Assembly: GCA_016214885.1 (NCBI GenBank)
Contig: JACRMP010000037.1
Span: 7,675 to 71,674 of the forward strand
DNA from: Candidatus Gottesmanbacteria bacterium
Lineage (GTDB): Bacteria > Patescibacteriota > Microgenomatia > UBA10105 > UBA927
Length of the DNA stretch: 64,000 nt
Direction: 5' to 3'
The position numbers were made by a program, and so were the translations under genes. Every line of letters begins with the position of its first letter. Positions within the stretch are counted from its first letter, which is position 1. The notes under the pieces are model-generated. The model did no database searches. It saw nothing but the letters and a program-made list of their open reading frames with translations, and was not told the origin of the DNA. Positions 839 to 20,314 of this stretch are shown piece after piece.

Positions 839-1723
839 TTATGTTATTGATCTCGCGAGGAGTCCTGAAAGTTCAGCGCCATCCATTTTATCGGCCTCCC
901 GGTTATTCCGGATAAACACCCCAAGCCCCATGTAGAGCATCTTGCCGGTAGCAGTATGCAGCGATGATTTCTCCTGAAGCATAGAAAGGCGTGTCACCAC
1001 CTGCTCAAATAAGGCGCCTGCAATAGGCACCTGCGATATAATACGCATATAGCTTTCGAGGGTAGCTCCGTTTACCAAATCGTTGGTCTTTTCAAAACCT
1101 ACCTGCAGCGTATCAGCGCCTTTGTCGGCCACCTCGTGGATATAACCCCTCTTCCCTGAAAGATGTTCGACAAGCATATTACCGAGTGCGGTTGCATATT
1201 TATCATTTAATACCTCAACAACTTTTTTCATACCGCCAACGCGCGCATTGAAGCGCAAATCGTCAGGAGTCATGAGCTTGGCATCTTTCTTAACTACCGG
1301 AAATAGCTTTTCAAGCGGCTTACTGGTTGCATAATCAAATGCGGTAAAAAGCGCAATTACCCCGGAAAATGCGGCTACCCGCTCCAGGCGTTCTTTTGCC
1401 CCGCCGATGTCTTTGCCGCCGCGGAAGTCCGCGTCTATCTTGCGGACGTGCTGCCCCATATGAGATACAAAGCTACCCGGTTTATATATCGCTTCATACA
1501 GCGCTTCGCGGAGCGCATCAAACTGCGGAGGCTTCTTTTTTTTGTCATACGGGGAATGTTCACCAACCTGGAATACTTGCTCCCAGTGCTTTTTCCGGTC
1601 TTCCATATATGCCTTCTTCCATGCGGCTGCCCCATCACCTGAGGGCGGGGTTGCAGGCTTTACTGTTTCTGCAGTAGTGGGGTAAGTTACTTTTACTGAT
1701 AAGGTTTCGACAGTCATATACAA
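839..1723 (-). CDS. hypothetical protein (cluster member A8)
   Basis: 294-aa ORF with no recognisable catalytic motifs. Its N-terminal region carries a W..Y..E..H..KKKKPPQFDAL motif also seen in other cluster proteins. Confidence 0.55.
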   Translation of the reverse strand: MYMTVETLSVKVTYPTTAETVKPATPPSGDGAAAWKKAYMEDRKKHWEQVFQVGEHSPYDKKKKPPQFDALREALYEAIYKPGSFVSHMGQHVRKIDADFRGGKDIGGAKERLERVAAFSGVIALFTAFDYATSKPLEKLFPVVKKDAKLMTPDDLRFNARVGGMKKVVEVLNDKYATALGNMLVEHLSGKRGYIHEVADKGADTLQVGFEKTNDLVNGATLESYMRIISQVPIAGALFEQVVTRLSMLQEKSSLHTATGKMLYMGLGVFIRNNREADKMDGAELSGLLARSIT

Positions 1724-1809
1724 AAATGATGCCTCACTTAGGCATCAGCGACAGTATAGCATATTATTATCCTATAACAATATGTAGCAATAGCCTGTCC
1801 TGACGCTCT

Positions 1810-2535
1810 TTATAACGGTTTTATGTTTTTCCCGATGTGGAACCCGGTAATGGCTTTCCCAAAAATACTCTGACCGAGCTTTGAGGTAGCGGTTTCTAAC
1901 AGGTGGTCAGATTTTTCATGAAGCCAGGTAACTGCGCTTCCTACAATCGGCAACTCTTCGACAATACGGAACGCAGCTTCCACGTTTACCGGATTAAAGA
2001 AATCAGCTGATGCGTAGGCAAGCTTGATCTTGCCATAAGTTTGCGGCACGGTATGACCGTGATGTACTTTTGTTTTTCCGTAAAGCCGGTCGGCCAAGAA
2101 TACCTGGGATATCACATTCCCCCACTCCGCAAGGAACGCGGATGTTTCAGAAACATACTTTGCATCATCAACGCCGGTCATAGCGCGAACCCAGGCATTA
2201 GCCACGCTGGCATATATGCTGTCCGATGCCCATTCTTCCACAAATTCCAAAGCAAACTGCTTACCTTGTGCGGACTTAGCCGCTTCTTTAAACTGAGGAC
2301 CTTTAGCTTTAAGCTCATGAATGCGGTCATGCATCGGCTCACGGATTACTTTGTCGACAAGGTGGCTTTCTGCAAAATCAACTGCAGTGGCTCCCACGAG
2401 GATAGTCGTGTTGATTCCTAGCCGCTTAAGGCTGTCTCCAGGCTGGGATTCATGTTTTTTTTCGGGGATAAGCAGACGCTGGAACCCCTGTTCTGCCGGG
2501 GTATATGCTCGTGTTGGTGCTGCTTCTTTATGCAT
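1810..2535 (-). CDS. hypothetical protein (cluster member A7)
   Basis: 241-aa ORF, co-directional and tightly spaced with its neighbours. No known motifs. Confidence 0.55.
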   Translation of the reverse strand: MHKEAAPTRAYTPAEQGFQRLLIPEKKHESQPGDSLKRLGINTTILVGATAVDFAESHLVDKVIREPMHDRIHELKAKGPQFKEAAKSAQGKQFALEFVEEWASDSIYASVANAWVRAMTGVDDAKYVSETSAFLAEWGNVISQVFLADRLYGKTKVHHGHTVPQTYGKIKLAYASADFFNPVNVEAAFRIVEELPIVGSAVTWLHEKSDHLLETATSKLGQSIFGKAITGFHIGKNIKPL

Positions 2536-2627
2536 AGGTTATACAACAAACCCAAACACATAGTTTGGGAATAAAAGGAGTATACCACAAAAAGTGTCCT
2601 ATAGCAATAGCTACTTGGGGATGCCGC

Positions 2628-2921
2628 TTATACGGAAAGGAGGCCCAATCCGGCGTTAATCAAACCGAGTGATTCCTCATGCTTCTTTTTTTCTTCCAGT
2701 GACATATCTTTTGTTGTGTGGCCCAAAAGCGACCGAATCTGCTGGGTGTGTTTTGTAATGGCAGCCTGATACTCCCGGTCAAATGCATCAATCCCCGCTT
2801 CCAGCTGTGCTTTGTCTTCTTCGCTGGCTTCTGCCATAGCTACCAGCACATCGACTTTTTGTGCATCACTGAATAATTTGGTTGCCTGAATTTTTTTGTT
2901 AATCCTCAAGTCGTTCATCAT
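2628..2921 (-). CDS. small helical hypothetical protein (paralog family T, copy 3)
   Basis: Start placed at the internal MMNDL, preceded by AGAGGGGGT (Shine-Dalgarno). The N-terminus shares the pattern I.A.....FSDAQK..VL with copies at 3913..4227 and 5124..5381. Confidence 0.55.
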   Translation of the reverse strand: MMNDLRINKKIQATKLFSDAQKVDVLVAMAEASEEDKAQLEAGIDAFDREYQAAITKHTQQIRSLLGHTTKDMSLEEKKKHEESLGLINAGLGLLSV

Positions 2922-3876
2922 ACCCCCTCTTTTTATTGTATTTATTATAGGAATTGCCGTAATACACGTTCTCCCCTTTATTAGGGGCACCTGCTTTGCC
3001 GCCCGACCAATCCTTTAATTTTCTGGTCTGACGGAGCTCTTTGTAATTCTTAGCAAATGTCGATAACCCATTCCACATCATTTCTACACCCAGTTGGGTA
3101 ACGGGGTTTGAGAGATTAAAAATACTTCCGACCATTCCCCGCTCTGCAACAGATGTAAGAGTGCGTTTATGAAGTAATTGCTTTTGCCCCGGCTTATGAA
3201 TTCCTAATGCATCATTCATCTGCATAACAGACCCTTCGACGCCAAATGGATACTTTTTTGGCGCACGCTGTTTATTCCCCCGGTATCCACCCCGGTATTT
3301 CCACTTCTCCACCCGTTTCTCTTTAATACGGGAAGCAGCACCTTTCATTTCATCTGGAATACTCTGCACAAAACCGGCTTCAAAGGCATTCGCAGCCAAT
3401 GAACGCAAAACATGCGGTGATTCAACTTGGGTAAAAATTGGCTGTGACCGGTAAGCAATAAAGTTATATAACGCAGCGAGCGCCACATCCTGTGTTCCTT
3501 CTTTTACAAAATGGGATATACGCGGATGCTTTTCTGACAATGCAGCAAGTTTTTTACCGGCACTCTCCCCCATGACAAACCGTTCAAAAATGGGGCCTTC
3601 CCCCCGCCAGGCCTTACTGAACATATCATCGGTTGCCAACTCTAGCCCCGCTCCCACCGCTCCGGTAAGCGCCCCGCGGGCCACGCGCATCAGTGCACTG
3701 TCGCCGTCAAACTTCCGTTTTGCCATGTCATTTGCCGAACGGATGTCGCTCACCATATCTGCGGCGGCCTTACCCAATCGCATAAACAACGATTGCTCCT
3801 TGGTTATTTTTTCAGGCAAAGGAGCGGAAGCCTCTTTTGGCAGCCAATGTTGCGGTATTTCGGCATGTTGTTGCAT
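2899..3876 (-). CDS. hypothetical protein (cluster member A6)
   Basis: 325-aa ORF with a glycine-zipper-like segment (GALTGAVGAGLEL) and a Lys/Tyr/Asn-rich C-terminus. Confidence 0.55.
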   Translation of the reverse strand: MQQHAEIPQHWLPKEASAPLPEKITKEQSLFMRLGKAAADMVSDIRSANDMAKRKFDGDSALMRVARGALTGAVGAGLELATDDMFSKAWRGEGPIFERFVMGESAGKKLAALSEKHPRISHFVKEGTQDVALAALYNFIAYRSQPIFTQVESPHVLRSLAANAFEAGFVQSIPDEMKGAASRIKEKRVEKWKYRGGYRGNKQRAPKKYPFGVEGSVMQMNDALGIHKPGQKQLLHKRTLTSVAERGMVGSIFNLSNPVTQLGVEMMWNGLSTFAKNYKELRQTRKLKDWSGGKAGAPNKGENVYYGNSYNKYNKKRGYDERLED

Positions 3877-3912
3877 AGCGTTATTTAAGCGTATAGGAGT
3901 TTGACAGTCCCG

Positions 3913-4227
3913 TCAAACACCGTCGTGTTGCGGAAAAAACTCCGCTGATTGTTTTTTTGCCTTATCCAATACATCCCGTTTTTCATCTTCAGTTAAATCG
4001 CTCGCCGCTACTTCTTCCTCAAATGCGCGTAGCGCCTTCGCAAGATCAGTGCGTAATGCTTTTTCCCGGTACACGGAATGCGTATCAAACGCCTCAAGCA
4101 TGTCCTCCACCCGTTTTCGATAATCATCGGGAAGGGTTTCCGGCTGATCCAATAACTCCTTTTTCTGGTCATCAGATAACACCCTGCTTTTATTTACTGC
4201 AGTAATAAATGCTTGGATATTTGCCAT
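3913..4227 (-). CDS. small helical hypothetical protein (paralog family T, copy 2)
   Basis: Start at MANIQAFITAVNKSRVLSDDQKKELLD, preceded by a GGAGGG Shine-Dalgarno. Paralogous N-terminal motif as above. Confidence 0.55.
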   Translation of the reverse strand: MANIQAFITAVNKSRVLSDDQKKELLDQPETLPDDYRKRVEDMLEAFDTHSVYREKALRTDLAKALRAFEEEVAASDLTEDEKRDVLDKAKKQSAEFFPQHDGV

Positions 4228-4228
4228 A

Positions 4229-5107
4229 TTATGTATGCCCTCCGTTAGTTGAAGGAGTATTGAATTGTTTAGCAATCAGCATGTTGTAGGCTAAATTTGT
4301 CGCAAACGGCATAACTCCTTTAGCTTGGATAAGCTGCCTGTTTGCGCTTGCATACATGCGCTCGACGAGTGCTCCTACCACAGGAATCGCACCGCCGAAC
4401 CGGAACGCACTTTCTATAAAGCCGGGATTTACGAATGAATTTACTACCCGTATATTTTTGGTTCCTGCATCAAACATAACGCCAGTCGCATTCACTATCG
4501 TGTTGCCTACCGCAGCTATAGTCCGCGATAGCGGGGAAACAAATCCGATATTGTCCCGGTTTGTAGCGGCCCTGGTGGCCACATCGGCGGCAGACCCTAC
4601 CAGCGCATCCGTGACAAACTCCCAGCCTACTTCAAGCGCCGCTTTGTTGCCGCTTTCCTTAAGGTTTATGGGCTTAAAAGGCCACACCCGGGCGCTTTCC
4701 AGCTTGAACAGCTTTTTTTGTGCAATAAGATCCCCCATTCTATCTAATCCGAATGATCCTGCCCCCAACACAAAAAAGGTAAGGAGCCTTCCCAGCTTAT
4801 GCGGCAGCTCCCTCCCACGAAGCTTGGCATCCAGTGCATTCACGCGCTCACCCAAGCTCGCGAACGTCGTTTTTTCATTGACATTTTTTATGGTTTCGGC
4901 GGTCATCATGGCAAGATTTCCCTGTACCGCTCCCGCTTCTCCCCGCTCAGCTAATGCTATGGGGGCTGCGACATCAAACACCTCCTGTAAATACTTATGA
5001 AACAGCGTATCGGCTTTTTTCTCAGGGGTTTTGCGTTCTGCTGATCCCTTGCCGACGTACACCCAATCAGTCTTGCCGTGAAAATTCTGTGTAATACTTT
5101 CTGCCAT
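4229..5107 (-). CDS. hypothetical protein (cluster member A5)
   Basis: 292-aa ORF with a glycine-zipper segment (FFVLGAGSFGLDRMGDL) and an N-terminal W.Y...E..PEKKADTLF motif. Confidence 0.55.
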   Translation of the reverse strand: MAESITQNFHGKTDWVYVGKGSAERKTPEKKADTLFHKYLQEVFDVAAPIALAERGEAGAVQGNLAMMTAETIKNVNEKTTFASLGERVNALDAKLRGRELPHKLGRLLTFFVLGAGSFGLDRMGDLIAQKKLFKLESARVWPFKPINLKESGNKAALEVGWEFVTDALVGSAADVATRAATNRDNIGFVSPLSRTIAAVGNTIVNATGVMFDAGTKNIRVVNSFVNPGFIESAFRFGGAIPVVGALVERMYASANRQLIQAKGVMPFATNLAYNMLIAKQFNTPSTNGGHT

Positions 5108-5123
5108 AGTATGGGTTAATTGA

Positions 5124-5381
5124 TTATTGAGCCTTACCGCTCCCTATATACACTTTCTCACTGCCCCCGCGCTCAAGTTCGGCAAGCATAATGTCGAGTT
5201 TTTGTTTTACATCATCTTCGTTAGCGAGGATAAACTGCCGCTCCGCAGCAAAAAACTTCCCCAATGCATCCGTCTGGCGATCCGTTAAACCCGGCACCAA
5301 ATCCAAAAGCATTAATCTATCCTCATCGGACAAAATAATACTTGCTTCAATTAGCGTTACTAGTGCAATTTTTTTATTCAT
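5124..5381 (-). CDS. small helical hypothetical protein (paralog family T, copy 1)
   Basis: 85 aa, MNKKIALVTLIEASIILSDEDRLMLLD, preceded by an AGAGGG Shine-Dalgarno. It overlaps the upstream gene's stop by 4 nt. Confidence 0.55.
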   Translation of the reverse strand: MNKKIALVTLIEASIILSDEDRLMLLDLVPGLTDRQTDALGKFFAAERQFILANEDDVKQKLDIMLAELERGGSEKVYIGSGKAQ

Positions 5382-6439
5382 ACAGAAGCCCTCTGCGGCA
5401 TGGGTGTAAACACCTCAGCCGCTTTTGCCACCTGCGGATTCTTCAATTTATCTATTTTTTTACTGAAGTGCGAAACAATAATATCTTTGGCTTTCTTAGC
5501 CCCCTCAAAACTCATTTTTGTTTCTTCATACCGGTTATGAAGGTATTGCCACGCAGGAGGAATAAGCCCTGCCCATACTTGCCCGAATAATTCTGCTCCG
5601 AATGAACCAAACACCACAACACTGGGCACATCAGGTGTGGGATCAATAATAGGCCCCAACGAATGAAGGAGTGTATGCTTACCGGCAACTTTGAGTCTAT
5701 GTCCTGCTTTTTCCCCAAATGTTGTAGCCGTCACCTCTCCCCTGGCGGAAGATAATATTTTTTCTGCGTCCGTTAACGCTTTACCGCTTTTTACGGCTTT
5801 TTCATAATTTAATACATAATCAGCATCCCGCAGATCATGGACAATGTGCTTCCTTACAAACTGGGAAACCTTACCTTCGACGGCCACTCCTTTTTTAAGC
5901 CCCTTCTCTAGACCCGCTTTTGCCACTCTTGTCGCCTGGCTTGCCTCCTGTGTTGCTACTGCCAATGCTGCTTTAGCCGCATCTGCCTTTTGCCTGGCCC
6001 TCTCGCTTTTACTAAACCACCCCGCCCACCGCTCAGCCTTTGATGCTGTTTTTTGTGCTTTAATAGCTGCAGTTTCTGCGTAAGCTGCTTTGTTTACCTT
6101 AGAGGCTAAACTCTCAATCTTGGCTCCCCCTTTTGCCAGAGCTATCCCCTCACTGGCGAGCGGCACAAACGGGATTATGGCTAATGCAGCTTTCACATCC
6201 TTAAATGCGATCCCCATCCTTTTTTTGAACATATCCTTATACAACCCGCCGAGCGATGCCAGAAGGCTCATCTGTTCGGTATTGGTCGTCACGTCGGCAC
6301 CAATAAGCGCACGGTTTGCTTCTACAGCTGCTTTTGCATCACCGATATGATTCCCCAACTCCGGAGAAACAGACATTCTGTTCTCGAGGGTCTCAGGAGA
6401 AAAATCATTCATAGCTTCAGTATGGGGCGTTTCTCTCAT
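5378..6439 (-). CDS. hypothetical Ala/Lys-rich coiled-coil protein (cluster member A4)
   Basis: 353 aa with a long Ala-rich helical region and a glycine-containing hydrophobic segment (LLASLGGLY...IIPFVPLASEGIALAKGG). Confidence 0.55.
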   Translation of the reverse strand: MRETPHTEAMNDFSPETLENRMSVSPELGNHIGDAKAAVEANRALIGADVTTNTEQMSLLASLGGLYKDMFKKRMGIAFKDVKAALAIIPFVPLASEGIALAKGGAKIESLASKVNKAAYAETAAIKAQKTASKAERWAGWFSKSERARQKADAAKAALAVATQEASQATRVAKAGLEKGLKKGVAVEGKVSQFVRKHIVHDLRDADYVLNYEKAVKSGKALTDAEKILSSARGEVTATTFGEKAGHRLKVAGKHTLLHSLGPIIDPTPDVPSVVVFGSFGAELFGQVWAGLIPPAWQYLHNRYEETKMSFEGAKKAKDIIVSHFSKKIDKLKNPQVAKAAEVFTPMPQRASV

Positions 6440-6458
6440 TTTCGCAAGCGAACAGCCC

Positions 6459-8681
6459 TTATCGTTTTGGCCGGGCGATAGCCTCCAGCACCTGATGATC
6501 AGAAAGCGTCGGTTTCGCCCCTATTCGGGGAGCAGTATCCCGTATATTTATCTTCTCAAAATCAATAATTTTCTCGGAAATATTCTCAAACACCGGATCA
6601 TGGGTAATAGCTACTACCGTCATATCGGGGCGTTCCTTTCGCAGGCGCTGGATAATATCCATCACCTGTTGGGCTGATGCTTCGTCGAGACTCGCTGTCG
6701 GCTCGTCCAGCACCAATATTTTTGGATTCTTAAGCAGTGCCCGCGCAATCCCAATCCGCCGCAGCTCTCCGCCAGAAAAATGTTTTGTCGTAGTATCCAG
6801 ACGATCCTGCAAATGCTCTAAACGAAGGTCTTTAAGTATTTTCGTTATAACGGTATCGGGCACGTTTTTATGCGACCACAACAGCAGGTTTTCTTTAAGC
6901 GTCATCCCTTCCAGAATTTGCGGGTTCTGGTTGGCATACCCCACCATAGTAGCCAGCGCCTCAGGGCCGTATTTTTTGATACCATCAATGGGAATTCCCC
7001 CGATTGCCACTGTGCCTGATTCGGGGGTATAGAGACCCACAAGGTTGCGGATAAATGTTGTCTTACCTGTCCCCGATTCGCCTTTAATTGTCACAAACGA
7101 GCCTTGTGGTATATCCAGCGATACATTCCGTACTATCCCCTTGTAGGAAAGGTTTTCGATATGGATGTCCGTATTAGCTAATTTTGTCACGGGTATACGT
7201 GCCCGTTCTTTTGGACCATTGGGGCGGTCTAACGTATCATATTTCCCCAGAAGCTCTTCCATGCGCCGTATATCCTGGATATCCGGGATGATGTTGTCTA
7301 CATACATACGCGTGAGACCGGCAAATGCTGCTCTCATCTCCATCTGTTGGTTTTTGGAATTGATTACCCGGGAAAGCGCATCGACCCCGAAATTAAATGC
7401 GCCTTCTCCTGATAATTTGCCGGGCGGCCTTTTTTGATTAAATTCAATAGCTTCACTCATAAACGGCAGCACAACATCCATCGCATCAAACAACATATTC
7501 ATCTGCCGCTGGCTTGCGAGCTTTTGCCGGAGCCCCTTGCTTGCCACCGTGTCCCGTTCCGTCAATAAATCGAGCATACTATCAGCACCGCTGGTTGCAC
7601 TCCCTGATGTCCGGACGGATTCAAGGCCTGCTAGCGTTGTCATAAGCTTTGTGTTCACTTTATCCATTCTAGCCAGCTCTGCCGCTCTGTTCTTCTGCAT
7701 TAGTTTTGCGTTCTGTTCACTGCGCATCAGCAAAAACGGCATTTTAATAAGCGTCGAGGCAAACTCCAATTTTCCCGTCACATACTGTCTCGGCAACTGG
7801 CTGAGTATCGAAAACATGGTGGGCAAAAACTCGGTATAGGTAGTGCGGACAAGGTCAATGGTAGATAGCTTACCGTTATTAATAATCTCCATTATCTCCC
7901 CCGCCGGCTTATCGTGAAGAAACTCAAAATCCCGCATAAATAACGATTCCGCTATCCGGGTATTTACCGCGCGCTGCAGATTCTGCCCTTCACGAACAAT
8001 GAGCTTATGGGCAAATTTTTCGGCCTGCCTCCCCACAAACCAATGTGCGGTTCCCGCAACCCACGGCCAGGTAGCGGAAAGCAATAATCCCAGCGCCTTC
8101 TTTTTCGTTTCCCCGGGGAGACGCTTAAGCGTTGCTCCAAGCTCCTGTAATGGCGTTTGACGCGCCTGCAGGAGCTCCAAACCATTCTCTACCTTGTCGG
8201 TAAACGCCTTCCTGGCATCTTCACTTATCCATGGCTTCGTCTGATAGCCACCAATAACACTGCCTGCCAGGTCGGTGGCAGCGTATATGCCGGTTACTGT
8301 CTGCCAATTACCGCTGCCTAATTTATAGGTGGTGAATAACTCCCCCATTACATCACGGTATTCCTGCATATTGATAACAGTTGGAGATTCTGGGGAAGTT
8401 GAAGGTTCGGGAGTTAGGCCGCTTTTTTTCCGGGCATAAGCAGCTTCTGCCTGGGCCATAACCGCTTTGTAGTCGTCTTTGCCGGCAATCAAACCTTCGT
8501 TCATGAGGTCGTGACCCACTGAAGTCGTTAAATCTTTAAGTTCATTAGGGTCAGGTGATTCGTTCTTGGAGACTTTTTGCGCTACCCGCGCTGCAGAAAC
8601 TAATGTCTCGGGTGATATCGCAAAAGGCGCAACCTCGCTTTGGGGCTTTTCAATGCGTTTACTTGATACCTCTGCCGTCAT
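6459..8681 (-). CDS. atypical ABC transporter ATPase fusion protein (N-terminal ~480-aa non-canonical domain plus C-terminal NBD)
   Basis: C-terminal Walker A GESGTGKTT, ABC signature FSGGELRRIGIARAL, Walker B ILVLDEPTASLD and H-loop AITHD. The middle region has an ABC-exporter ICL1-like motif (FLHDKPAGEIMEII...D) but only 1-2 convincingly hydrophobic helices. An extra ~180-aa N-terminal extension is present. Confidence 0.75.
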   Translation of the reverse strand: MTAEVSSKRIEKPQSEVAPFAISPETLVSAARVAQKVSKNESPDPNELKDLTTSVGHDLMNEGLIAGKDDYKAVMAQAEAAYARKKSGLTPEPSTSPESPTVINMQEYRDVMGELFTTYKLGSGNWQTVTGIYAATDLAGSVIGGYQTKPWISEDARKAFTDKVENGLELLQARQTPLQELGATLKRLPGETKKKALGLLLSATWPWVAGTAHWFVGRQAEKFAHKLIVREGQNLQRAVNTRIAESLFMRDFEFLHDKPAGEIMEIINNGKLSTIDLVRTTYTEFLPTMFSILSQLPRQYVTGKLEFASTLIKMPFLLMRSEQNAKLMQKNRAAELARMDKVNTKLMTTLAGLESVRTSGSATSGADSMLDLLTERDTVASKGLRQKLASQRQMNMLFDAMDVVLPFMSEAIEFNQKRPPGKLSGEGAFNFGVDALSRVINSKNQQMEMRAAFAGLTRMYVDNIIPDIQDIRRMEELLGKYDTLDRPNGPKERARIPVTKLANTDIHIENLSYKGIVRNVSLDIPQGSFVTIKGESGTGKTTFIRNLVGLYTPESGTVAIGGIPIDGIKKYGPEALATMVGYANQNPQILEGMTLKENLLLWSHKNVPDTVITKILKDLRLEHLQDRLDTTTKHFSGGELRRIGIARALLKNPKILVLDEPTASLDEASAQQVMDIIQRLRKERPDMTVVAITHDPVFENISEKIIDFEKINIRDTAPRIGAKPTLSDHQVLEAIARPKR

Positions 8682-8811
8682 ATCACTATTGTAAACACAT
8701 TTGGATACGTTGTCATTTGACAGAGGTCATAGATACACCGTGATATCCCATGGGAAAACGGAACCCACCGATAAACCATACGGCCACAATACAGCGGTAT
8801 TTACTATAACG

Positions 8812-9660
8812 TTACTTTTTCTTTTTTTTTGCGGCGCGCTTTTTTATTGCTTCAATTTTTATCTGATATGCACTCTTCTGCCCTGCTTCTACCCCTCTCA
8901 ATCCCATCGCTTTTCTTGCTGCCAAAATCTCATGAAGACCGCTCTGCATTTCATTTCTTCGTCTTACCAAGTCATCCACTGGTCTCCCAGCTTTCATGGC
9001 TTCTCTAATTTGCTTAGATAATTCCTCCACTTTGGTCAGTTCAGGCCGCCCGGAAAGCAGCGTTTCAGCCCGAGGAAGATCTCTCATGGCAATAAGACGT
9101 TTTTCCTTCAAACGTATCAGCGCTTCTCCTTGGTATTTACCGCTTTTAATTGCCTGATCAAGCGCTTCCACCCGCTTCCTATATCCTGTTGCTGCTTTAA
9201 TAGATTCAGAAACAGCGTCCACATTAATTGGCCCTTTACTGCTTCCTTCCCTACGGAAGAAATTAAACTTCCCAACCATTGACCGGAGGCTATCGTGGGC
9301 GCGTTTTCCGGCATTTGCCATTTTTTCACCCATTCCGCCCATGCGACCAATCCTATCCCGCATGCCGCCGACATTGGTGATAAGTCCCCCGCCCAATCCG
9401 GCAACGGTGACACCCAAAACAGTCGCTCCCCAATGGGTGGCCACGTCAATTTTTGCAGATGAAAGTGCGTCCTGTTCAATCTGGGCAAATGCTGCCTGCT
9501 TGTCTTCCGGGGAAAGATTTGCCGTCGCCTTTGCAATAAGATCAGCGTTGTTCTGATAAAATTTCTCTTTGGATCCTTGGATGGTGAATGACTTGCGGAC
9601 TTTTTCTTTAAGCCCTGCAAACCAACCTTGTCGTTCTGGTGACATACCTGCTTCGGTCAT
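8812..9660 (-). CDS. hypothetical protein (cluster member A3)
   Basis: Start placed at MTEAGMSPE, preceded by GAAGGAGGTTGTT. The protein has a glycine-zipper segment (GVTVAGLGGGLITNVGG), a C-terminal coiled coil and a poly-Lys tail. Confidence 0.55.
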   Translation of the reverse strand: MTEAGMSPERQGWFAGLKEKVRKSFTIQGSKEKFYQNNADLIAKATANLSPEDKQAAFAQIEQDALSSAKIDVATHWGATVLGVTVAGLGGGLITNVGGMRDRIGRMGGMGEKMANAGKRAHDSLRSMVGKFNFFRREGSSKGPINVDAVSESIKAATGYRKRVEALDQAIKSGKYQGEALIRLKEKRLIAMRDLPRAETLLSGRPELTKVEELSKQIREAMKAGRPVDDLVRRRNEMQSGLHEILAARKAMGLRGVEAGQKSAYQIKIEAIKKRAAKKKKK

Positions 9661-9690
9661 AACAACCTCCTTCATGAACTAACTAAATTA

Positions 9691-10002
9691 TTATATATTC
9701 TCGTCTGTTAATGCCTTTTCTACGTTCTCGAGTACCCCGGTCATCGTTTCTTCTATTTCCTTCAGCGCTTCCCCATCCTTGATGGAATCCCCTATAAGCT
9801 TTGCATAACTTTCAACAGTCACGCGTGACTTCGGATCAGCTGCCAAGTACTCTAGGTCTTCTTGTGGCATATATTTTACCATAATCGGCCAAACAGTGCT
9901 CTGGAGGCCTTCGGAAATGAGGACATAGAGCTCATTTTTTTCGGATTCCGACAGCTGTGACTTCTCTATCCTTTCAACAATTGCCTTAAGTTTTTCTTCC
10001 AT
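9691..10002 (-). CDS. small hypothetical protein (paralog family S, copy 2)
   Basis: Start at MEEKLKAIVERIE, preceded by AAAGGAGGAAAT. About 65% identical to 10871..11200 across the motif GLQSTVWPI.VKYMP...L..LA..P......Y.KLI.DS.KDG.ALKEIE. Confidence 0.6.
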   Translation of the reverse strand: MEEKLKAIVERIEKSQLSESEKNELYVLISEGLQSTVWPIMVKYMPQEDLEYLAADPKSRVTVESYAKLIGDSIKDGEALKEIEETMTGVLENVEKALTDENI

Positions 10003-10030
10003 ATTTCCTCCTTTAATCACTATAGCACAC

Positions 10031-10834
10031 TTATTTCTTTACAAAATCCAATGGTGTGGGTTTTTTTGGCCATTTTTCATGCGGCAATGCAACCGTAAGC
10101 CGATGCCAATCATTCAGGGCTTTTTCATATGCGCGCTTCGCTTTTCCCTGCGCTCCCCGCTCTTGAAGTTTTTTTACGCCTTCACCTACTTTATTCTCAA
10201 CTGCTTCTAAATCTTTGTACATTGTATAAGGTAACTTAACTGCTTCCACCGCGGCACCCCCAACAACCTTTGCTGCATCAACCATTGCCGGTCCACCGAC
10301 AAGACCCCAAACGTATTTGCCACCCTCCCCCACCTTCCGGATCGGCCAAAACATAATTTTGGCTCCCCACTCAATGGGTGTTACAACTACTTTAACCCCA
10401 AACATCGCGACATCCATCCCGGTTTTAACGGCATTATAGGAAACATCCTTCACCGCCTGGAACACGGTCCGTGAACGGTTGTCTACCCGCATGCGCGCAG
10501 CGGCATTACGGCCATTTACTGCTATAGCACGGTCATTTAGCTTCCCATACACCGCCGCCCCTCCCACCAGGGCGCCGCCGGCAACGAGGGAATCAATGAT
10601 TACGGAGCCTACTGCCGCACTTTTAGATTGCTGCCTGAGCCGTAATTCGAGAAGTGCCATCTGGCTTTCAGTAATATCCTTGGGGAGATTTTCTGCGATA
10701 CTGTTGTATTTTTTAAGATAGATTTTATCCGCACGCCCGTTAAGCGTCAGGTTATCATGCGACCAGCTTTTAATGCGGTCGACAATTCCCTTGCCGGATA
10801 ACCCTTTCATTTCCCCATGTGGCCGTTGTTCCAT
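10031..10834 (-). CDS. hypothetical protein (cluster member A2)
   Basis: 267 aa with a glycine-zipper segment (VIIDSLVAGGALVGGAAVYG) and a C-terminal KRAYEKALNDWHRL...HEKWPKKPTPLDF motif shared with A8. Confidence 0.55.
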   Translation of the reverse strand: MEQRPHGEMKGLSGKGIVDRIKSWSHDNLTLNGRADKIYLKKYNSIAENLPKDITESQMALLELRLRQQSKSAAVGSVIIDSLVAGGALVGGAAVYGKLNDRAIAVNGRNAAARMRVDNRSRTVFQAVKDVSYNAVKTGMDVAMFGVKVVVTPIEWGAKIMFWPIRKVGEGGKYVWGLVGGPAMVDAAKVVGGAAVEAVKLPYTMYKDLEAVENKVGEGVKKLQERGAQGKAKRAYEKALNDWHRLTVALPHEKWPKKPTPLDFVKK

Positions 10835-10870
10835 AGTGTTTTATCCGCCGGACAGAAGGCGGTTCCCCTT

Positions 10871-11200
10871 TTATTCCAAAACCGGCGCCTGTGGCACCCC
10901 CTGCTCCGTTAATGTTTTATCAACGGCATCAAGGATTTGTTGCATAAGCGTCTCGATCTCTTTCAGGGCTGCCCCGTCTTTGACGGAATCTTCGATAAGT
11001 TTGCCGTAAGTTTCCAGGTTTACTTTAGAAGGATTTTCCGCCAGATCATCAAGCTGATCTTTCGGCATGTATTTAATGAGGATCGGCCATACCGTGGACT
11101 GCAACCCCTCGGCAAGCGCCGTATATACGTCCTCTTTTTCATTTTCCGCAAGCTTCGACATCTCGACCCTCGTTACCACTGCACGAAGTTTATCATCCAT
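10871..11200 (-). CDS. small hypothetical protein (paralog family S, copy 1)
   Basis: 109 aa, MDDKLRAVVTRVE, preceded by AAAGGAG. Paralog of 9691..10002. Confidence 0.6.
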   Translation of the reverse strand: MDDKLRAVVTRVEMSKLAENEKEDVYTALAEGLQSTVWPILIKYMPKDQLDDLAENPSKVNLETYGKLIEDSVKDGAALKEIETLMQQILDAVDKTLTEQGVPQAPVLE

Positions 11201-11226
11201 AAAAAACTCCTTTCACTAGAACACTA

Positions 11227-11862
11227 TTATGGCCTCGCCTTAAGCCTGGTGGGTTTTTGTTCCGCAAACGGACTTTTGATCCAGTTTACAACCCTATCGA
11301 CTTTCTTTTTGGTCATGCGTACGGCAATTTCCGGAGCGCTCATCACTGCTTCTGCCCCCGTCCGTACCGCTTTGACAAGCCCCAATTCACCGCGCATTAA
11401 TCCCGCTCCCGCCGCATGAAGTCCAAGCTTCACGTCAAATCGGGCAAGGGCAAGCCGCTTAAAGGCATCTCTTGGCGGACCAAACGGGGTTAATTTCCGG
11501 GGCAACCAGGTGAGAATGTTATAAGGAATATCCAAAGTAGCGGCTCCAAAAGAAACAACTGCCGCTTCGACACGTGCGCCGGTGCGTTGAGAAAATTCCG
11601 CTATCTTCCCTACCAGTCCAAGCTCTTTGCCTGCATACATATGATGCAGAATCTTGTCCATATTCTCAACGTAATGCTTGTACACCCCTTTTCCTGAGGC
11701 ATTCTTCCGCCCATCGATATCCTGACGGATCTCCCAATAATCTTTATTGGTTTGCTGTACTTCCCCTATTGCTCCCCGTACGGCTTTGCCGACGGCGCTT
11801 TCACTCATCGCTTCCTGGAACGTTGTTTTCTCAAATCCTTCAGCCATAATCCTCCCTTTCAA
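11227..11862 (-). CDS. hypothetical protein (cluster member A1, first gene of cluster)
   Basis: 211 aa, preceded by AAAGGGAGGAT. Glycine-zipper segment GLHAAGAGLMRGELGL. Confidence 0.55.
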   Translation of the reverse strand: MKGRIMAEGFEKTTFQEAMSESAVGKAVRGAIGEVQQTNKDYWEIRQDIDGRKNASGKGVYKHYVENMDKILHHMYAGKELGLVGKIAEFSQRTGARVEAAVVSFGAATLDIPYNILTWLPRKLTPFGPPRDAFKRLALARFDVKLGLHAAGAGLMRGELGLVKAVRTGAEAVMSAPEIAVRMTKKKVDRVVNWIKSPFAEQKPTRLKARP

Positions 11863-11961: not shown

Positions 11962-13284
11962 TCAGCTCTTCATGGAAGCTAAAATCCTCTCCAGAGCCAC
12001 GACGAATGCCGCAGTGCGTAAATCAGTTTTATACATCACTGAGGCCTCCCAGACCGCTCCCGCCGCATCCGCCATTTTTTTGGCAAGTTTTTTATTTACC
12101 TGGGCTTTCGTCCAGTGGGCAGCTTTTCTATTCTGCTCCCATTCAAATGCCGACACCGTGACGCCACCGCTATTGCTTAAGATGTCCGGAATAACCGGGA
12201 TCCCCTTCTTATATAAAATAGTGTCCGCCTCCGGCGTGGTCGGACCGTTTGCCATCTCAAGCACCACCTTAGCCTTCACCTTCCCCGCGTTCTCGGCGGT
12301 AATGGCATTTTCGAGCGCCGCCGGCACCAGAATATCAACGGGCAGCTCAAGAAGCTCATTATTGGTCACCTGGCGTCCTTTTTTGAGATCACACACCGAG
12401 CCTGAGCAATAGCAACCCGCCAGATACCCATTCTTTTTCTTACAGTCCAGGGTGAGCGCTGGATTAATCCCTTCAGGCACATAAATGCCTCCTTTGCTGT
12501 CCGATACCGCAACCACCATTATCCCCGCTTCCTCCAGAAACTTAGCCACGTTATAGCCAACATTGCCGAATCCCTGCACTGCCGCGGTAAGCTTGCCCGA
12601 TAACTTAAGCTTTTTAATAATCGCCTGCAGCACAAACAGCCCGCCAAGTCCGGTCGCCTCTTCTCTCCCTTCGCTCCCCCCGTTGGTAATCGCTTTTCCG
12701 GTAAATGTACTTTTCAGCTTCAGGATATCTTTTTTGGTAAGTGTTTTACCCAATACTTTTGCCTTTATTTTTTGCGAAGCAATAAACTCCTCTACCATCC
12801 ATCCCATAATGACCCCGTTGGTGTTGACGTCCGGTGCCGGCACATCGGTATCAGGGCCAATTACATCTGCGATAGCTTTGCCGTATGCCCTACTTAACCG
12901 CTCAAGCTCACCCTGGGAAAGTGTTTTGGGATCGACGATAATGCCGCCTTTTCCTCCGCCGAGCGGCAAATCTGCCACTGCACATTTCATTGCCATCCAA
13001 AATGACAAAGCTTTGACCTCGTCGAGGCTCACATTATGGTGATACCGGATGCCCCCCTTATACGGACCCTTCGCGTTATTAAACTGCACACGGTAGCCCT
13101 GAAACAACCGCTGCGACCCGTCATCCATCATAACCGGAAGAGTCACATTTATAACCCGTTGCGGCTCCCGGAGTCTGGCTACCTTCTGGTCTATATTGCC
13201 CAATTTTTTCTTTGACCCGGCAAGCACCTTGTGTGCTTTGGCTAACTGCTTCATGGCTGACTCAAATGGATTGATAGCATTCAT
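11962..13284 (-). CDS. gdhA: NAD(P)-dependent glutamate dehydrogenase
   Basis: GGGKGG motif (LPLGGGKGGIIVDPK) and Rossmann GFGNVG. 440 aa. Confidence 0.85.
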   Translation of the reverse strand: MNAINPFESAMKQLAKAHKVLAGSKKKLGNIDQKVARLREPQRVINVTLPVMMDDGSQRLFQGYRVQFNNAKGPYKGGIRYHHNVSLDEVKALSFWMAMKCAVADLPLGGGKGGIIVDPKTLSQGELERLSRAYGKAIADVIGPDTDVPAPDVNTNGVIMGWMVEEFIASQKIKAKVLGKTLTKKDILKLKSTFTGKAITNGGSEGREEATGLGGLFVLQAIIKKLKLSGKLTAAVQGFGNVGYNVAKFLEEAGIMVVAVSDSKGGIYVPEGINPALTLDCKKKNGYLAGCYCSGSVCDLKKGRQVTNNELLELPVDILVPAALENAITAENAGKVKAKVVLEMANGPTTPEADTILYKKGIPVIPDILSNSGGVTVSAFEWEQNRKAAHWTKAQVNKKLAKKMADAAGAVWEASVMYKTDLRTAAFVVALERILASMKS

Positions 13285-13325
13285 ATATACCTCCTTAAAA
13301 AAAGTACTCAGTATTTATACTATGG

Positions 13326-14021
13326 TTAATAAAATAGCTCCGTTTTAATTTGCTCTTTCGGCACATGCCGCTCGATGAGACGCGCCCTCACCTCTTCCGT
13401 CATCGCCTTATTGCCACAGACGTAAAATTCTGATTGCGCCAAATCCCTTTCTAAATGAAGGACATGTTCAGTCACGTGTCCGGTAAGCCCCTGCCAGGCA
13501 GGGGTTGGCCGCGAAAGTATTTGCTTCCAGGAAAAAACCGGATGCGCCCCTGCGATCGCATCAAATTCATCCCGCCAATATATATCATGTTCATACCGCT
13601 GCCCCCAGTACAACACCATAGGCGTTTCATTCTTTTTTTCAAGCGCATCCAAAATCATTGAATGAAACGGAGCGATACCGGTGCCTGTCGCTACCATCAC
13701 TTTACGCTTCGGGGTATCAAGAAACGAAAGCACCCCTCCTGTTGGCGCGACGATGGTTGCCTGATCTCCCACCGTCAAACCGACGGTCCATTGCGACCCC
13801 GGTCCCATCGGACTCACATCATGCACCATAAGGATGTCGCTTGCCGATGGCGGACTGGCGATAGACATCGTGCGGTTCACTCCGGGAGCTATCATCAGCA
13901 TCATATTCTGGCCGGCACGGAACGAAATAATCGGCGGAGAAACCGGGCGGAACGTGACAAAAAACACTTTGTCGGTGACCTTCTCCTTTTTAAGGACTTG
14001 AAGCGTAATTTTAGCTGCCAT
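13326..14021 (-). CDS. FNR-like FAD/NAD(P)-binding oxidoreductase (ferredoxin-NADP reductase family)
   Basis: FAD-binding RAGQ..-like segment, and GTGIAPF in the NAD-binding domain. It overlaps the trxB stop by 11 nt. Confidence 0.6.
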   Translation of the reverse strand: MAAKITLQVLKKEKVTDKVFFVTFRPVSPPIISFRAGQNMMLMIAPGVNRTMSIASPPSASDILMVHDVSPMGPGSQWTVGLTVGDQATIVAPTGGVLSFLDTPKRKVMVATGTGIAPFHSMILDALEKKNETPMVLYWGQRYEHDIYWRDEFDAIAGAHPVFSWKQILSRPTPAWQGLTGHVTEHVLHLERDLAQSEFYVCGNKAMTEEVRARLIERHVPKEQIKTELFY

Positions 14022-14949
14022 GGGATTCTAAATATTTTTCTGCATCCATCGCGGCCATACACCCCTGGCCGGCAGCGACGATTGCCTGCCGGTACCGAGG
14101 GTCTACACAATCACCAGCAGCGAACAAGCCGGGGACATTCGTCGCAGTCTGCGGATCAAGCGGACTCATAGTCCGCTGTACCTTCACATATCCTTTGGGA
14201 TCCAGATCGACCAGGCCATTAAGAAACCCCGTGCTGGGTTTGTGTCCGATAGCTAAAAATACCCCCTGCGTCGGATAATCTATCACCTCATTGGTTTTGG
14301 TGTCGCGGATTCGGACACCGGTCACTTCAGTTTCTCCCAATATTTCCTCAATAATTTTATTGGTAAGAAACGAAATGCGGGGGTCTTTCCTTGCACGGTC
14401 AAGCATAATAGCCGAAGCGCGGAATTCATCACGCCGGTGGATAACCGTCACCTTCGGAGAAAATTTAGTCAAAAATGTCGCCTCTTCCATTGCGGTATCC
14501 CCGCCCCCCACCACAACAACAACTTTTCCCTTAAAAAAGAAACCGTCGCAGGTAGCGCATCCTGATACTCCCTTGCCACGAAGCTTCTCTTCGCTGGGGA
14601 GCCCTAAATACATTGCGGAAGCTCCCGTTGCGACAATCACTGTTTTTGCCTGATACGTAGTACCCGCGGTTTTTACGGTAAACACGTCCTCTTTCTCAAC
14701 GGCGGTTACAGCCTCCTGTTTGATTTCGGCGCCAAAACGCTCCACCTGACTTTTCATGTCAGTAACCAGTTTTGGTCCCAACACCCCCTCAGGGAAACCC
14801 GGAAAATTATCAACCTCAGTTGTAGTGGTGAGTTGCCCTCCCGGCTCAAACCCCGCCAACACCACGGTCTTTAAAAACGCACGGGACGTATATAGTGCCG
14901 CTGTATATCCGGCAGGACCGGAACCAATGATAATGACATCGTATATCAT
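14011..14949 (-). CDS. trxB: thioredoxin reductase
   Basis: N-terminal GSGPAGYTAA FAD motif, redox-active CATCDG, and a second GGGDTA NADPH motif. Confidence 0.85.
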   Translation of the reverse strand: MIYDVIIIGSGPAGYTAALYTSRAFLKTVVLAGFEPGGQLTTTTEVDNFPGFPEGVLGPKLVTDMKSQVERFGAEIKQEAVTAVEKEDVFTVKTAGTTYQAKTVIVATGASAMYLGLPSEEKLRGKGVSGCATCDGFFFKGKVVVVVGGGDTAMEEATFLTKFSPKVTVIHRRDEFRASAIMLDRARKDPRISFLTNKIIEEILGETEVTGVRIRDTKTNEVIDYPTQGVFLAIGHKPSTGFLNGLVDLDPKGYVKVQRTMSPLDPQTATNVPGLFAAGDCVDPRYRQAIVAAGQGCMAAMDAEKYLESHGS

Positions 14950-14969
14950 GTATGCAAATAACGAGCCGG

Positions 14970-15284
14970 TTACATGAGCTTAGTTAACTCACCCACCAAA
15001 ACATCTTTACTTGTTACGCCGATAAATTGCTTTGCAACAGCGCCGTTTTTGAAAATCATCATCGTCGGAATGCTCATAATGCCGAATTTTTGAGCGTACA
15101 CAGGATTTTCGTCGACATTCAGCTTTACCACTTTAACCTTATCACCGAGCGTTGTTGCAACGTCTTCGACAATAGGCCCCTGAATCTGGCAGGGCGTGCA
15201 CCATACCGCCCAAAAATCCACAAGTACCGGTACCGTGGATTTCATAACTTCTGCTTCAAATGTTTGATCTGTTACATCTGCCAT
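14970..15284 (-). CDS. trxA: thioredoxin
   Basis: WCTPC active site (FWAVWCTPCQ). Start at MADVTDQ with a GAGGAGG Shine-Dalgarno. The longer upstream ORF extension is rejected. Confidence 0.8.
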   Translation of the reverse strand: MADVTDQTFEAEVMKSTVPVLVDFWAVWCTPCQIQGPIVEDVATTLGDKVKVVKLNVDENPVYAQKFGIMSIPTMMIFKNGAVAKQFIGVTSKDVLVGELTKLM

Positions 15285-15410
15285 AGAGCCTCCTCGTAAA
15301 ATGAACAATATTATTTCGGATCCCCAGTATATCACCAGGTGTTTATCTGTAAACCCCGGCAAATATATAGCGTTTATACGCCCCAAACTCATTAGGGTCC
15401 GGCAAAAACA

Positions 15411-15617
15411 CTACTGCCGTAATTGGTATCCGGCCGCTTCTACCGCTTCTTTTACCGCTTTATCGGGAGCTTGTCCGTCCTCTGTATCTACTTCGAGTGT
15501 TTGTTTTGCAAAGCTGCACCTTCCCACTATCCCCCGGTCTTCCAACTCGCCTTCAATGAGCATGGCGCAACTAGCACAGTGCATCCCGTCTATCTGATAT
15601 GTTTTTTTTGTTTTCAT
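15411..15617 (-). CDS. copZ: copper chaperone, heavy-metal-associated domain
   Basis: GMHCASCA metal-binding motif. 68 aa. Confidence 0.8.
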   Translation of the reverse strand: MKTKKTYQIDGMHCASCAMLIEGELEDRGIVGRCSFAKQTLEVDTEDGQAPDKAVKEAVEAAGYQLRQ

Positions 15618-16645: not shown

Positions 16646-16739
16646 CGCTTGACAACAATGGTAAACATGATACGATCATTATATCCCCATAGGGGGGATT
16701 AAAGTCAACCCGGTATTTTCGGGAGTAAAACGGAAATAT

Positions 16740-17024
16740 ATGCCTAAAGGAACACCACGCAATCAATCCGTTCAGCTAAAAATACTTCACCGCATGAAAA
16801 TTGCGCGCGGACACCTTAACCGGGTAATCCGCATGATGGAGCAGGGTGATTATTGCGTAAATATCATCCACCAGTCGCTCGCTGTCCAGGCAGCGCTTCG
16901 GAGCACCGACCAGGAAATTCTCCGCAATCACCTAGTTACCTGTGTTGCAGAAGAAATAAAAAATGGAAATGCAAATGAAGTAATAGAGGAAGTTATGAAG
17001 GTTATGGAGAAGCAACATGGATAA
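16740..17024 (+). CDS. csoR: CsoR/RcnR-family metal-sensing transcriptional repressor
   Basis: DYCVNIIHQ...HLVTC pattern (Cys/His/Cys ligands typical of CsoR). 94 aa. Confidence 0.75.
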   Translation: MPKGTPRNQSVQLKILHRMKIARGHLNRVIRMMEQGDYCVNIIHQSLAVQAALRSTDQEILRNHLVTCVAEEIKNGNANEVIEEVMKVMEKQHG

Positions 17025-17370
17025 ACTAATCGTCACGCTGCTGGGAGCTACCGTAATAGGATTTATCTATTGGTTTTTCTTTGGAAAAAAAGATGAATTA
17101 GTGCAACCAAAAAACGTCTGGAGTGTTCTCGTGGAAGGCGGGTACAAACCGTCCACCATTACTATCCCTCGCGATAAACCGACAACGCTCACCTTTACGC
17201 GCACTGACGCCAACAGTTGTCTGGAAGAAATCGTACTGCCTGATTTTAAGATAAAGAAATTCCTACCACTAGATAAAGAGGTGGTAATAACCATACCCCC
17301 CACCAAACCAGGCATCTACACACTTCACTGCGGTATGAATATGTATCACGGAAAAATTATCGTTGTATGA
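17017..17370 (+). CDS. cupredoxin-like copper-binding protein with N-terminal membrane anchor
   Basis: N-terminal TM helix, beta-rich domain and an HCGMNMYHG motif. Lies immediately upstream of copA. Confidence 0.6.
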
Positions 17371-20287: not shown

Positions 20288-20314
20288 CTAGTATACACCC
20301 ATACGTCACAATTT

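Follow-up and report, generated by a model that had tools for sequence, protein, structure and literature searches.

Small acidic and large basic proteins encoded in coupled pairs around an exporter-derived ABC ATPase in a conserved operon of Candidatus Gottesmanbacteria

Several described systems place a small partner beside a larger protein before it is secreted. In type VI secretion (T6SS), Eag chaperones shield the transmembrane (TM) domains of effectors before secretion (PMC7773334). Similarly, in type VII secretion (T7SS), the soluble small proteins ExiAB sequester the membrane-active toxin EsxX before export (PMC12744356). Small acidic helical chaperones are also known from type III secretion systems (T3SS) and flagella (FliS-FliC, FlgN-FlgK/L, class I/II), and a TM domain followed by a nucleotide-binding domain in a single chain is the layout of type-IV ATP-binding cassette (ABC) exporters, such as PCAT1, McjD, CydDC and the HlyB/PrtD type of type I secretion systems (T1SS). 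The locus analysed here, positions 839-11862 of a 64,000-nucleotide (nt) stretch of a Candidatus Gottesmanbacteria genome (the whole stretch being called the window below), recalls both kinds of system. It consists of 14 open reading frames (ORFs), all on the minus strand and separated by short spacers, and so confirms the 14 co-directional genes that an earlier note on this DNA had placed between gdh and the 23S/tRNA-Ala locus. The labels of that note are kept, A for the large proteins (A1 to A8) and S or T for the small ones (S1, S2, T1 to T3); the remaining gene encodes an ABC protein.

Patescibacteria represent a large share of bacterial diversity and appear to live attached to other cells; to our knowledge, almost nothing is known of the proteins at their cell-cell interface, and this operon offers a candidate set of them that is compact, clearly delimited and strongly conserved. 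The cluster, in which five coupled acidic/basic pairs are combined with a central ATPase derived from exporters, is regarded as one real, conserved machine and not as a shuffling toxin island. The reading preferred here, tentatively and with less than even confidence, is an ABC-driven system that would export or assemble helical proteins of amphipathic nature, with a small acidic partner holding each one. Three features favour export or assembly at the envelope: the ATPase descends from exporters, cysteine is lacking, and A2, A5 and T2 are hypervariable. No described Patescibacteria system of this kind was found in the literature, which offered analogies only.

The gene order shows five pairs, S1>A2 and S2>A3 with the small gene first, and A4>T1, A5>T2 and A6>T3 with the large gene first; A1, A7 and A8 are unpaired. 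The earlier note had joined each T gene to the A gene behind it (T1-A5, T2-A6, T3-A7), which is out of phase, as the T modules run large-then-small. This pairing is deduced from tight junctions, from 4-nt overlaps in relatives and from matched identities. A4 and T1 share a 4-nt overlap (ATGA), the sole true one in the window cluster, where several had been claimed; T2 follows the A5 stop codon after a gap of 1 nt and has its Shine-Dalgarno sequence inside A5; T3, whose start follows AGAGGGGG, overlaps the end of A6 by 23 nt. The gaps T1-A5, T2-A6 and T3-A7 measure 16, 36 and 92 nt. Relatives (L-numbers denote contexts retrieved for distant homologues and from a metagenome scan) contain additional large>small pairs with 4-nt overlaps. 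Identities to the L001 orthologues are matched within A4/T1 (0.73 and 0.74), A5/T2 (0.45 and 0.38) and A6/T3 (0.71 and 0.65), and mismatched within T1-A5, T2-A6 and T3-A7. For the S modules, the S>A order is found with 4-nt overlaps in L036 and L044, and an S>A2-like pair occurs in L025. As the earlier note had stated, every small gene carries a strong Shine-Dalgarno sequence, the five being AAGGAG, AAGGAGG, CAGAGGG, CGGAGGG and AGAGGGGG. The pairings S1:A2, S2:A3, A4:T1, A5:T2 and A6:T3 are clear enough to make the proposal directly testable. A separate observation is that the C-terminus of T1 (5124-5150), (E)KVY(I/V)GSGKA, resembles the conserved N-terminus of A5 (5050-5107), DWVYVGKG (hhalign E = 0.006); the two may share a short recognition or strand motif.

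The small proteins have isoelectric points (pI) of 4.4-5.6 and the large ones of 9.2-10.2, with the exception of A7 at 7.2, and the alternation of acidic small and basic large proteins is repeated in relatives. In addition, none of the 3496 residues of the 14 proteins is a cysteine, where the cysteine content of the window's other 49 ORFs would predict 24 (Poisson P = 4e-11), and the close relatives of the ABC protein also lack cysteine. In Firmicutes, exported proteins have been reported to exclude cysteine (PMC2823432).

The family relations of these proteins were established by profile-profile comparison (hhalign) and by cross-hits of hidden Markov models (HMMs) in relatives. S1 and S2 are paralogues, as the earlier note had proposed, at a measured identity of 53% (hhalign probability 100%) in place of the ~65% it had given. 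The paralogy of the T proteins, called divergent in the same note, is weak between the window proteins and supported by HMM cross-hits in relatives, T2 and T3 being connected through intermediates and T1 being more distant. Homology between S and T proteins is unsupported (hhalign probability <=8%). The large proteins, which had been taken as non-homologous, include one family made of A5 and A7 (probability 94.7%) with A8 as a more distant member, and a second relation between A2 and A3 over their first ~100 residues (probability 88.5%); A1, A4 and A6 are singleton families. A5, A7 and A8 have in common the C-terminal motif N-P-x3-E-[SA]-x2-R-x5-P-[VI]-x-G, and the recurring W..Y..E..(P)EKK motif described before was not recovered by profile comparison. 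A2 has a conserved N-terminal domain of ~100 amino acids (aa), at whose end lies a moderately hydrophobic stretch rich in Gly (residues 72-97), and a hypervariable C-terminal half that is unalignable even with its closest relative; A3 has a Gly-rich stretch at residues 82-104, and A4 has conserved N- and C-terminal blocks around a variable Ala/Lys-rich middle. Glycine-zipper-like segments had been described as common to the large proteins; in motif counts against shuffled sequences, strict zippers are enriched in A4 only (z = 4.3) and not in A2, A5, A7 or A8. The AlphaFold2 model of A5 is an all-alpha bundle (predicted local distance difference test, pLDDT, 76; predicted template modelling score, pTM, 0.74), for which a structure search gave no match.

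Database searches agree with the earlier statement that the gene content matches no named system. Pfam, run on all 14 proteins, and NCBIfam, PHROGs and PADLOC, each run on 10 of them, recognised nothing but the ABC nucleotide-binding domain. Profile searches of the PDB with the S, A2/A3, A4, A5/A7/A8 and A6 families returned sub-threshold designed helical proteins and a fragment of the toxin Tse5. The other 13 proteins thus belong to no described family, and the ABC protein alone can be placed, in the ABC exporter superfamily.

The conservation of the cluster goes far beyond chance. When 5.8 billion proteins were searched with the first 500 residues of the ABC protein, no more than 22 matched, and the one with 100% identity is annotated as Candidatus Gottesmanbacteria; the S1 search gave 28 proteins and the A5/A7/A8 profile 74, none of them functionally annotated. 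Among 185,579 species-representative genomes, one locus with the system was found (L001, on a 990-kb contig, with 80% ABC identity). The other 23 of the 24 loci of this genome scan were set aside as generic matches to the nucleotide-binding domain, belonging to ABC-F-like or stand-alone ATPases, mostly of Gracilibacteria. More than 10 related contigs keep the order and one-to-one orthologues beside gdh, at ABC identities from 80% to ~40%; in L001, L029, L032, L033, L034 and L035 (58-80%) the genes follow gdh directly. At ~42% ABC identity (L036, L038, L044) the layout is three S>short-basic-protein pairs, two tandem ABC paralogues and then A4-T1-A5-T2-A6-T3-A7-A8, and in the more distant L041, L045 and L046 an ABC gene is followed by large>small pairs that overlap by 4 nt, with an A8-like gene in last place. 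In the contexts L025-L028 (Gottesmanbacteria RIFCSPLOWO2_01_FULL_49), where ABC identity is 25-34%, an S homologue lies immediately upstream of an A2-like gene, and a second A2-like gene is present. The earlier note had named the absence of the pairing from related genomes as one finding that would refute its proposal; the S>A pair beside the ABC gene persists even at this distance, so that this check does not refute it.

Because the gene order beside gdh recurs and a core is kept at 25-34% ABC identity, the cluster is concluded to be an ancient operon, passed on vertically, rather than an island; the full set of 14 genes occurs solely in a small subclade of the ultra-small Gottesmanbacteria. 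The partner-pair architecture around a dedicated exporter-type ATPase that the earlier note had recognised is retained, and its terms "diversifying" and "island" are not, given the fixed position, the one-to-one orthology and a G+C content at the genome average. The same data bear on the proposal that a prophage, plasmid or defence-island module came to lie beside gdh by chance. This explanation could draw on the many small unknown genes on one strand and on generic matches of the ABC protein to the defence ATPase models mad3 and AriA, and is effectively refuted: the PADLOC matches cover only the generic nucleotide-binding domain; PHROG, BFVD, INPHARED and PLSDB gave no relative of the cluster, and IMG/VR no locus for the S family; the G+C content (0.47-0.48) and GC skew are those of the flanks; all relatives have the cluster at this same place; and neither an integrase nor repeats nor the signature of an attachment site beside a tRNA gene was seen.

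The 14 genes have not evolved in the same manner. The ratio of nonsynonymous to synonymous substitution rates (dN/dS) is mostly uninformative, dS being saturated, and amounts to 0.05-0.23 where it is not, which indicates purifying selection. Eleven of the 14 genes diverge about like gdh and the ABC gene; fast or mosaic evolution is seen in A5, in T2 and in the C-terminal half of A2, as expected of exposed or interface proteins. T2 is the fastest-evolving gene, and A5 is 63-66% identical to its counterparts in L033 and L034 and only 43% to those in L001 and L032, the reverse of the ABC order, which suggests allelic replacement. Two A5 allele classes are recognised, VVGAxxER (window, L033, L034) and GGGFIKE (L001, L029, L032), and their distribution, which contradicts the order of ABC and gdh similarity, implies recombination or old balanced alleles.

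One alternative, which corresponds to the toxin-immunity idea of the earlier note, is an arsenal of interbacterial or host-directed toxins, in which the large proteins would depolarise membranes or form pores after export by the ABC protein, and the small acidic proteins would serve as cytoplasmic immunity proteins or antitoxins. Small acidic and large basic partners made by coupled translation would suit this explanation, and so would the co-variation of A5 and T2, the two fastest-evolving genes, the A5 allele classes at odds with the ABC/gdh phylogeny, the conserved N-terminus and swapped C-terminus of A2, which recall polymorphic toxins, the zipper enrichment of A4 and the precedent of ExiAB-EsxX (PMC12744356). 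The A4-family profile also matched the fragment 8cp6_C of the pore-forming toxin Tse5, below threshold (E = 0.04) and partly through an Ala/Lys-rich low-complexity stretch; this match is not significant and is treated as a lead, not as evidence. The toxin arsenal is nevertheless judged improbable, because most of the genes are conserved orthologues at a fixed locus, with ordinary rates in 11 of 14, and because the S proteins have not varied along with A2: S1 is the most conserved family of the cluster, and S2, which follows the hypervariable A2, is 65-85% conserved, the opposite of toxin-immunity co-variation. Moreover, neither orphan immunity arrays nor extra toxin cassettes were seen, no toxin domain was recognised in the library searches, and A2, A5, A7 and A8 show no zipper enrichment. 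In the same way, with S2 so conserved and the locus syntenic in relatives, the cluster does not behave as a set of polymorphic toxin-immunity cassettes, the co-variation of A5 and T2 being its only cassette-like trait.

The only family match among the 14 proteins is that of ABC_tran (PF00005) to residues 518-663 of the ABC protein (E = 3.7e-31), whose nucleotide-binding domain comprises residues 505-700. All the ATPase motifs are intact (Walker A, Q-loop, signature, Walker B with the catalytic Glu, H-loop), and GESGTGKT, NQNPQ, FSGGE, ILVLDEPT and ITHD are invariant in the alignment of the family; the domain is complete and catalytically plausible. It is closest to those of ABCB, CydDC, bacteriocin and T1SS exporters, and the NCBIfam models of the last three groups are the best matches, TIGR03796 being collinear with residues 235-679. 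An AlphaFold2 model was built from 15 homologues (pLDDT 70, and 55-69 over residues 310-450). In this model a helical N-terminal extension of ~120 aa is followed by six long helices (~residues 125-478) and by the nucleotide-binding domain, and Foldseek aligned ~600 columns of it with PCAT1, CydDC, McjD and other type-IV exporters of the PDB (E ~1e-16), so that the protein is predicted to have the complete type-IV exporter fold. The best-conserved stretch outside the nucleotide-binding domain, SLFMRDFEFLHDKPAGE, falls at the expected first coupling helix, and the motif is invariant. As in type-IV exporters, the TM-equivalent domain and the nucleotide-binding domain share one chain, with ATPase motifs, six long helices and the conserved first coupling helix; unlike these exporters, the window protein has no segment of TM hydrophobicity and no direct match to Pfam ABC_membrane (PF00664). 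It also differs from the peptidase-containing (PCAT) and bacteriocin exporters, as the N-terminal extension, predicted to be helical and without a Peptidase_C39 match, takes the place of their C39 or C39-like domain.

Relatives of this protein were found at two levels. A profile search of 1.84 billion representatives gave ~22 full-length clusters of the family and ~50 further clusters of 720-840 aa that match from ~position 225 to the end (195-434 bits). The sampled members of this second tier have Pfam ABC_membrane matches (E 2.6e-9 to 6e-3), and the helical domain of the ABC protein therefore derives from an exporter TM domain. The homology of these Patescibacteria proteins (for example HEY4482801.1, from Candidatus Paceibacterota) to the window protein begins at the first coupling helix and extends as far as the C-terminus. 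They have a similarly low hydrophobicity, but they differ from it in their ~300-aa N-terminal regions, their weak ABC_membrane matches and a few cysteines. Across ~75 clusters (at 50% identity), 0-2 segments exceed a Kyte-Doolittle (KD) value of 1.6, compared with 5-6 per half in the classical ABCB matches of the same list, and the low-hydrophobicity group appears spread across Patescibacteria. Two tandem ABC paralogues were observed in L030, L036, L038, L041 and L044, and three in L039, which suggests heterodimeric versions of the motor.

On the preferred reading, of export or envelope assembly, this vertically inherited, lineage-specific operon would encode a single machine of several components. 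Its motor, an ATPase of ABC exporter descent that would be a homodimer here and is represented by two or three paralogues in relatives, would handle the large proteins; its clients would be cysteine-free, mostly basic, all-alpha amphipathic proteins of five families (A1; A2/A3; A4; A5/A7/A8; A6), and translational coupling would provide five of these proteins with a partner that is small, acidic and helical. Each partner would form a complex with its large protein (S:A or A:T) and keep it soluble and inactive in the cytoplasm of the producer, like a chaperone or a pre-secretion antitoxin, until the ABC dimer, driven by ATP to close and open, releases, exports or inserts it at the cell envelope. 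The variable parts, A5 and the C-terminus of A2, may then face the outside or a host cell. If the large proteins were exported and membrane-active, this would amount to a new route of protein delivery in an organism without classical specialised secretion systems.

Several results weigh against export. The best 19-residue KD window (KD19) of the ABC protein reaches only 1.15, compared with 2.2-2.9 for the membrane proteins of the window, and on a second scale, a simplified, position-independent Hessa-type sum, its best value is +6.0, with soluble controls at +6 to +9 and membrane controls at -2.3 to +1.7. As neither scale finds a canonical TM helix in any of the 14 proteins, a route across the membrane is not evident. 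Furthermore, Pfam recognised no secretion signal, C39 peptidase, membrane-fusion protein or other accessory component in the cluster. Nor can the exclusion of cysteine be read here as a clean mark of export, because the ABC protein and the small partners, cytoplasmic if the large proteins are exported, are cysteine-free too, and because a VKOR/thioredoxin/DsbD-like block adjoins the cluster. The missing TM hydrophobicity is the oddest feature of the locus: the six-helix fold of a type-IV exporter is found in the model, and its six membrane-spanning hydrophobic helices are not. The motor thus breaks the rule that relatives of ABC exporters have hydrophobic membrane helices.

These observations are at the same time the case for a wholly cytoplasmic machine, the main rival of the preferred reading, which we consider unlikely but serious. 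In such a machine the ABC protein would have lost its membrane embedding and become a soluble ATP-driven clamp or cage that assembles, remodels or stores basic amphipathic proteins, for example a scaffold associated with the nucleoid, the ribosome or the inner leaflet, with the small acidic proteins as charge-neutralising assembly chaperones. The two hydrophobicity scales argue for it, as the membrane proteins used as controls gave normal values, and so do the conserved polar or charged residues inside the TM-equivalent helices of the ABC protein (D137, D399, D402, E410, R438), the low hydrophobicity of its ~75 related clusters, the absence of a hydrophobic N-terminal signal from all 14 proteins (as noted before), the lack of cysteine in parts that are cytoplasmic under any model and the stable chromosomal position among housekeeping and redox genes. 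Against it, every detectable ancestor of the ATPase is a membrane exporter, and we know of no soluble ABC protein with the type-IV fold; A2, A3, A4 and A8 contain stretches of intermediate hydrophobicity, none of them canonical (3.3-5.8 on the Hessa-type sum, compared with 6-9 in soluble controls); and hypervariable members such as A2, A5 and T2 would be unusual in an internal scaffold.

If the ABC protein were soluble or surrounded by protein, it would extend the range of the exporter fold. We also give a low but real probability to the idea that it represents an unrecognised class, an exporter-fold ATPase with polar "TM" helices that is either a soluble ATP-driven cage or a channel in a protein rather than a lipid environment and that, with its 13 orphan partners, forms a Patescibacteria-specific host-interface apparatus for the delivery or assembly of amphipathic proteins or lipids. 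The probability left over by the explanations weighed here belongs to functions not thought of, and something categorically new is thought unlikely, if by no means negligible.

A related suggestion concerns lipids themselves. ABCA1 loads apolipoprotein A-I (apoA-I), and lipid biosynthesis in Patescibacteria is commonly regarded as incomplete. By analogy, an ABC dimer that is polar outside and apolar inside could load host-derived lipids or other hydrophobic cargo onto apolipoprotein-like A proteins, to the benefit of a cell unable to produce lipids itself. The "TM" helices of the ABC protein, amphipathic and not hydrophobic, the helical, basic and Ala/Lys/Gly-rich composition of the A proteins and the apparent spread of the low-hydrophobicity ABC group across Patescibacteria would all be consistent with such a shuttle. 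We regard it as very improbable, in view of the fact that neither 11-mer or apolipoprotein-like repeats nor corresponding homology were found in the A proteins and that the 14-gene set occurs in a small subclade, where a general need for lipid uptake would predict a wider spread.

Compared with the secretion systems that suggested export, the cluster shares an arrangement and not components. Similarly to the T3SS and flagellar chaperones and the Eag proteins of T6SS (PMC7773334), the partners are acidic and helical, with 85-109 aa, and their genes adjoin and are translationally coupled to the gene of a larger protein, with a dedicated ATPase in the operon and presumed substrates that lack cysteine and a signal peptide. 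The differences are that the small proteins have no Pfam or NCBIfam match to chaperone families (CesT, FliS, FlgN, FliT, SycD), that the ATPase is of the ABC type and not of the FliI/F1 type, and that the cluster has no export-gate, needle or sheath gene. The repeated pairs of small-helical and large-helical genes, with some hypervariable members, recall EsxX-ExiAB of T7SSb (PMC12744356), PE/PPE and Lap-LXG, and the small soluble protein may likewise shield a membrane-active segment before export. Unlike T7SS, however, the cluster has no Pfam match to WXG100, LXG, PE or PPE, its sole ATPase is of the ABC type and not an EssC/EccC FtsK-type enzyme, and most of its members are conserved orthologues and not polymorphic cassettes. 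From T1SS it differs in the absence of a membrane-fusion or outer-membrane partner (no HlyD or OEP match among the 13 neighbours of the ABC protein), and from PCAT and T1SS substrates in its presumed clients, helical proteins of 200-350 aa in which neither double-glycine leaders at the N-termini nor RTX repeats were found.

The coordinates of the genes and of the predicted signals are given in Table 1. Start codons were taken as the ATG that follows a Shine-Dalgarno sequence; the ORF of A1 reaches upstream to a TTG at 11862, and its ATG at 11847 is preceded by AAGGGAGG. The candidate promoter and terminator of the earlier note correspond to consensus-type matches at 11957-11885 and 633-612. 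The weaker hairpins before A7 and A8 may be attenuators and so govern the stoichiometry of these two final genes.

Table 1. Genes of the cluster, its boundaries and predicted signals (positions in the window)
Feature	Position	Strand	Remarks
gdh (glutamate dehydrogenase)	11962-13284		Upstream boundary of the cluster; Pfam ELFV_dehydrog, E = 3e-72
Two overlapping sigma-70-like promoter matches	11957-11928, 11914-11885	minus	Upstream of A1; 10/12 each, consensus match only
A1	11227-11847	minus	206 aa, pI 9.9, no Cys; opens the operon, no partner
S1	10871-11200	minus	109 aa, pI 4.4; small partner of A2
A2	10031-10834	minus	267 aa, basic
S2	9691-10002	minus	103 aa, acidic; small partner of A3
A3	8812-9675	minus	282-287 aa (start 9675 or 9660), pI 10.2
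Promoter-like site	8688-8716	minus	In the 130-nt gap ahead of the ABC gene; 10/12, consensus match only
ABC protein	6459-8681	minus	740 aa
A4	5378-6439	minus	353 aa, basic
T1	5124-5381	minus	85 aa, acidic
A5	4229-5107	minus	292 aa, basic
T2	3913-4227	minus	104 aa, acidic
A6	2899-3876	minus	325 aa, basic
T3	2628-2921	minus	97 aa, mildly acidic
Terminator-like hairpin, weaker, internal	2569-2551	minus	Before A7; pattern match only
A7	1810-2535	minus	241 aa, pI 7.2
Terminator-like hairpin, weaker, internal	1747-1727	minus	Before A8; pattern match only
A8	839-1717	minus	292 aa, basic; closes the cluster
Terminator-like hairpin and T-run	633-612	minus	Downstream of A8; pattern match only
tRNA-Ala	454-527	minus	Downstream boundary
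23S rRNA gene, 5' end	1-204	minus	Downstream boundary

Upstream of the cluster, a redox/copper block (11962-20809) contains gdh and genes for an FNR-like NAD_binding_1 protein, a TrxB-like reductase, thioredoxin, a fusion of DsbD_2 and cupredoxin, a P-ATPase of the CopA type that carries an HMA domain, a Crp-like regulator and VKOR; its gdh/TrxB/FNR/thioredoxin part also precedes the cluster in L030, L032, L035, L036, L038 and L044. Downstream, a strong promoter-like site (811-783, 11/12) lies between A8 and the tRNA-Ala/23S genes, and there is no 16S gene upstream of the 23S gene, which appears unlinked from 16S. In L045, two LAGLIDADG endonuclease ORFs follow the A8-like gene, the region being probably an intron-bearing 23S gene, and ParE/PhdYeFM and HicB/PIN toxin-antitoxin genes lie beside and upstream of the ABC gene. 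The most distant variant of the system, in L025, adjoins a gene for an AbiEii-family toxin (2019-2783). Elsewhere in the window, two tRNA-Met (CAT) genes are located on opposite strands at 44357-44427 and 45998-46071, at most 1.7 kb apart.

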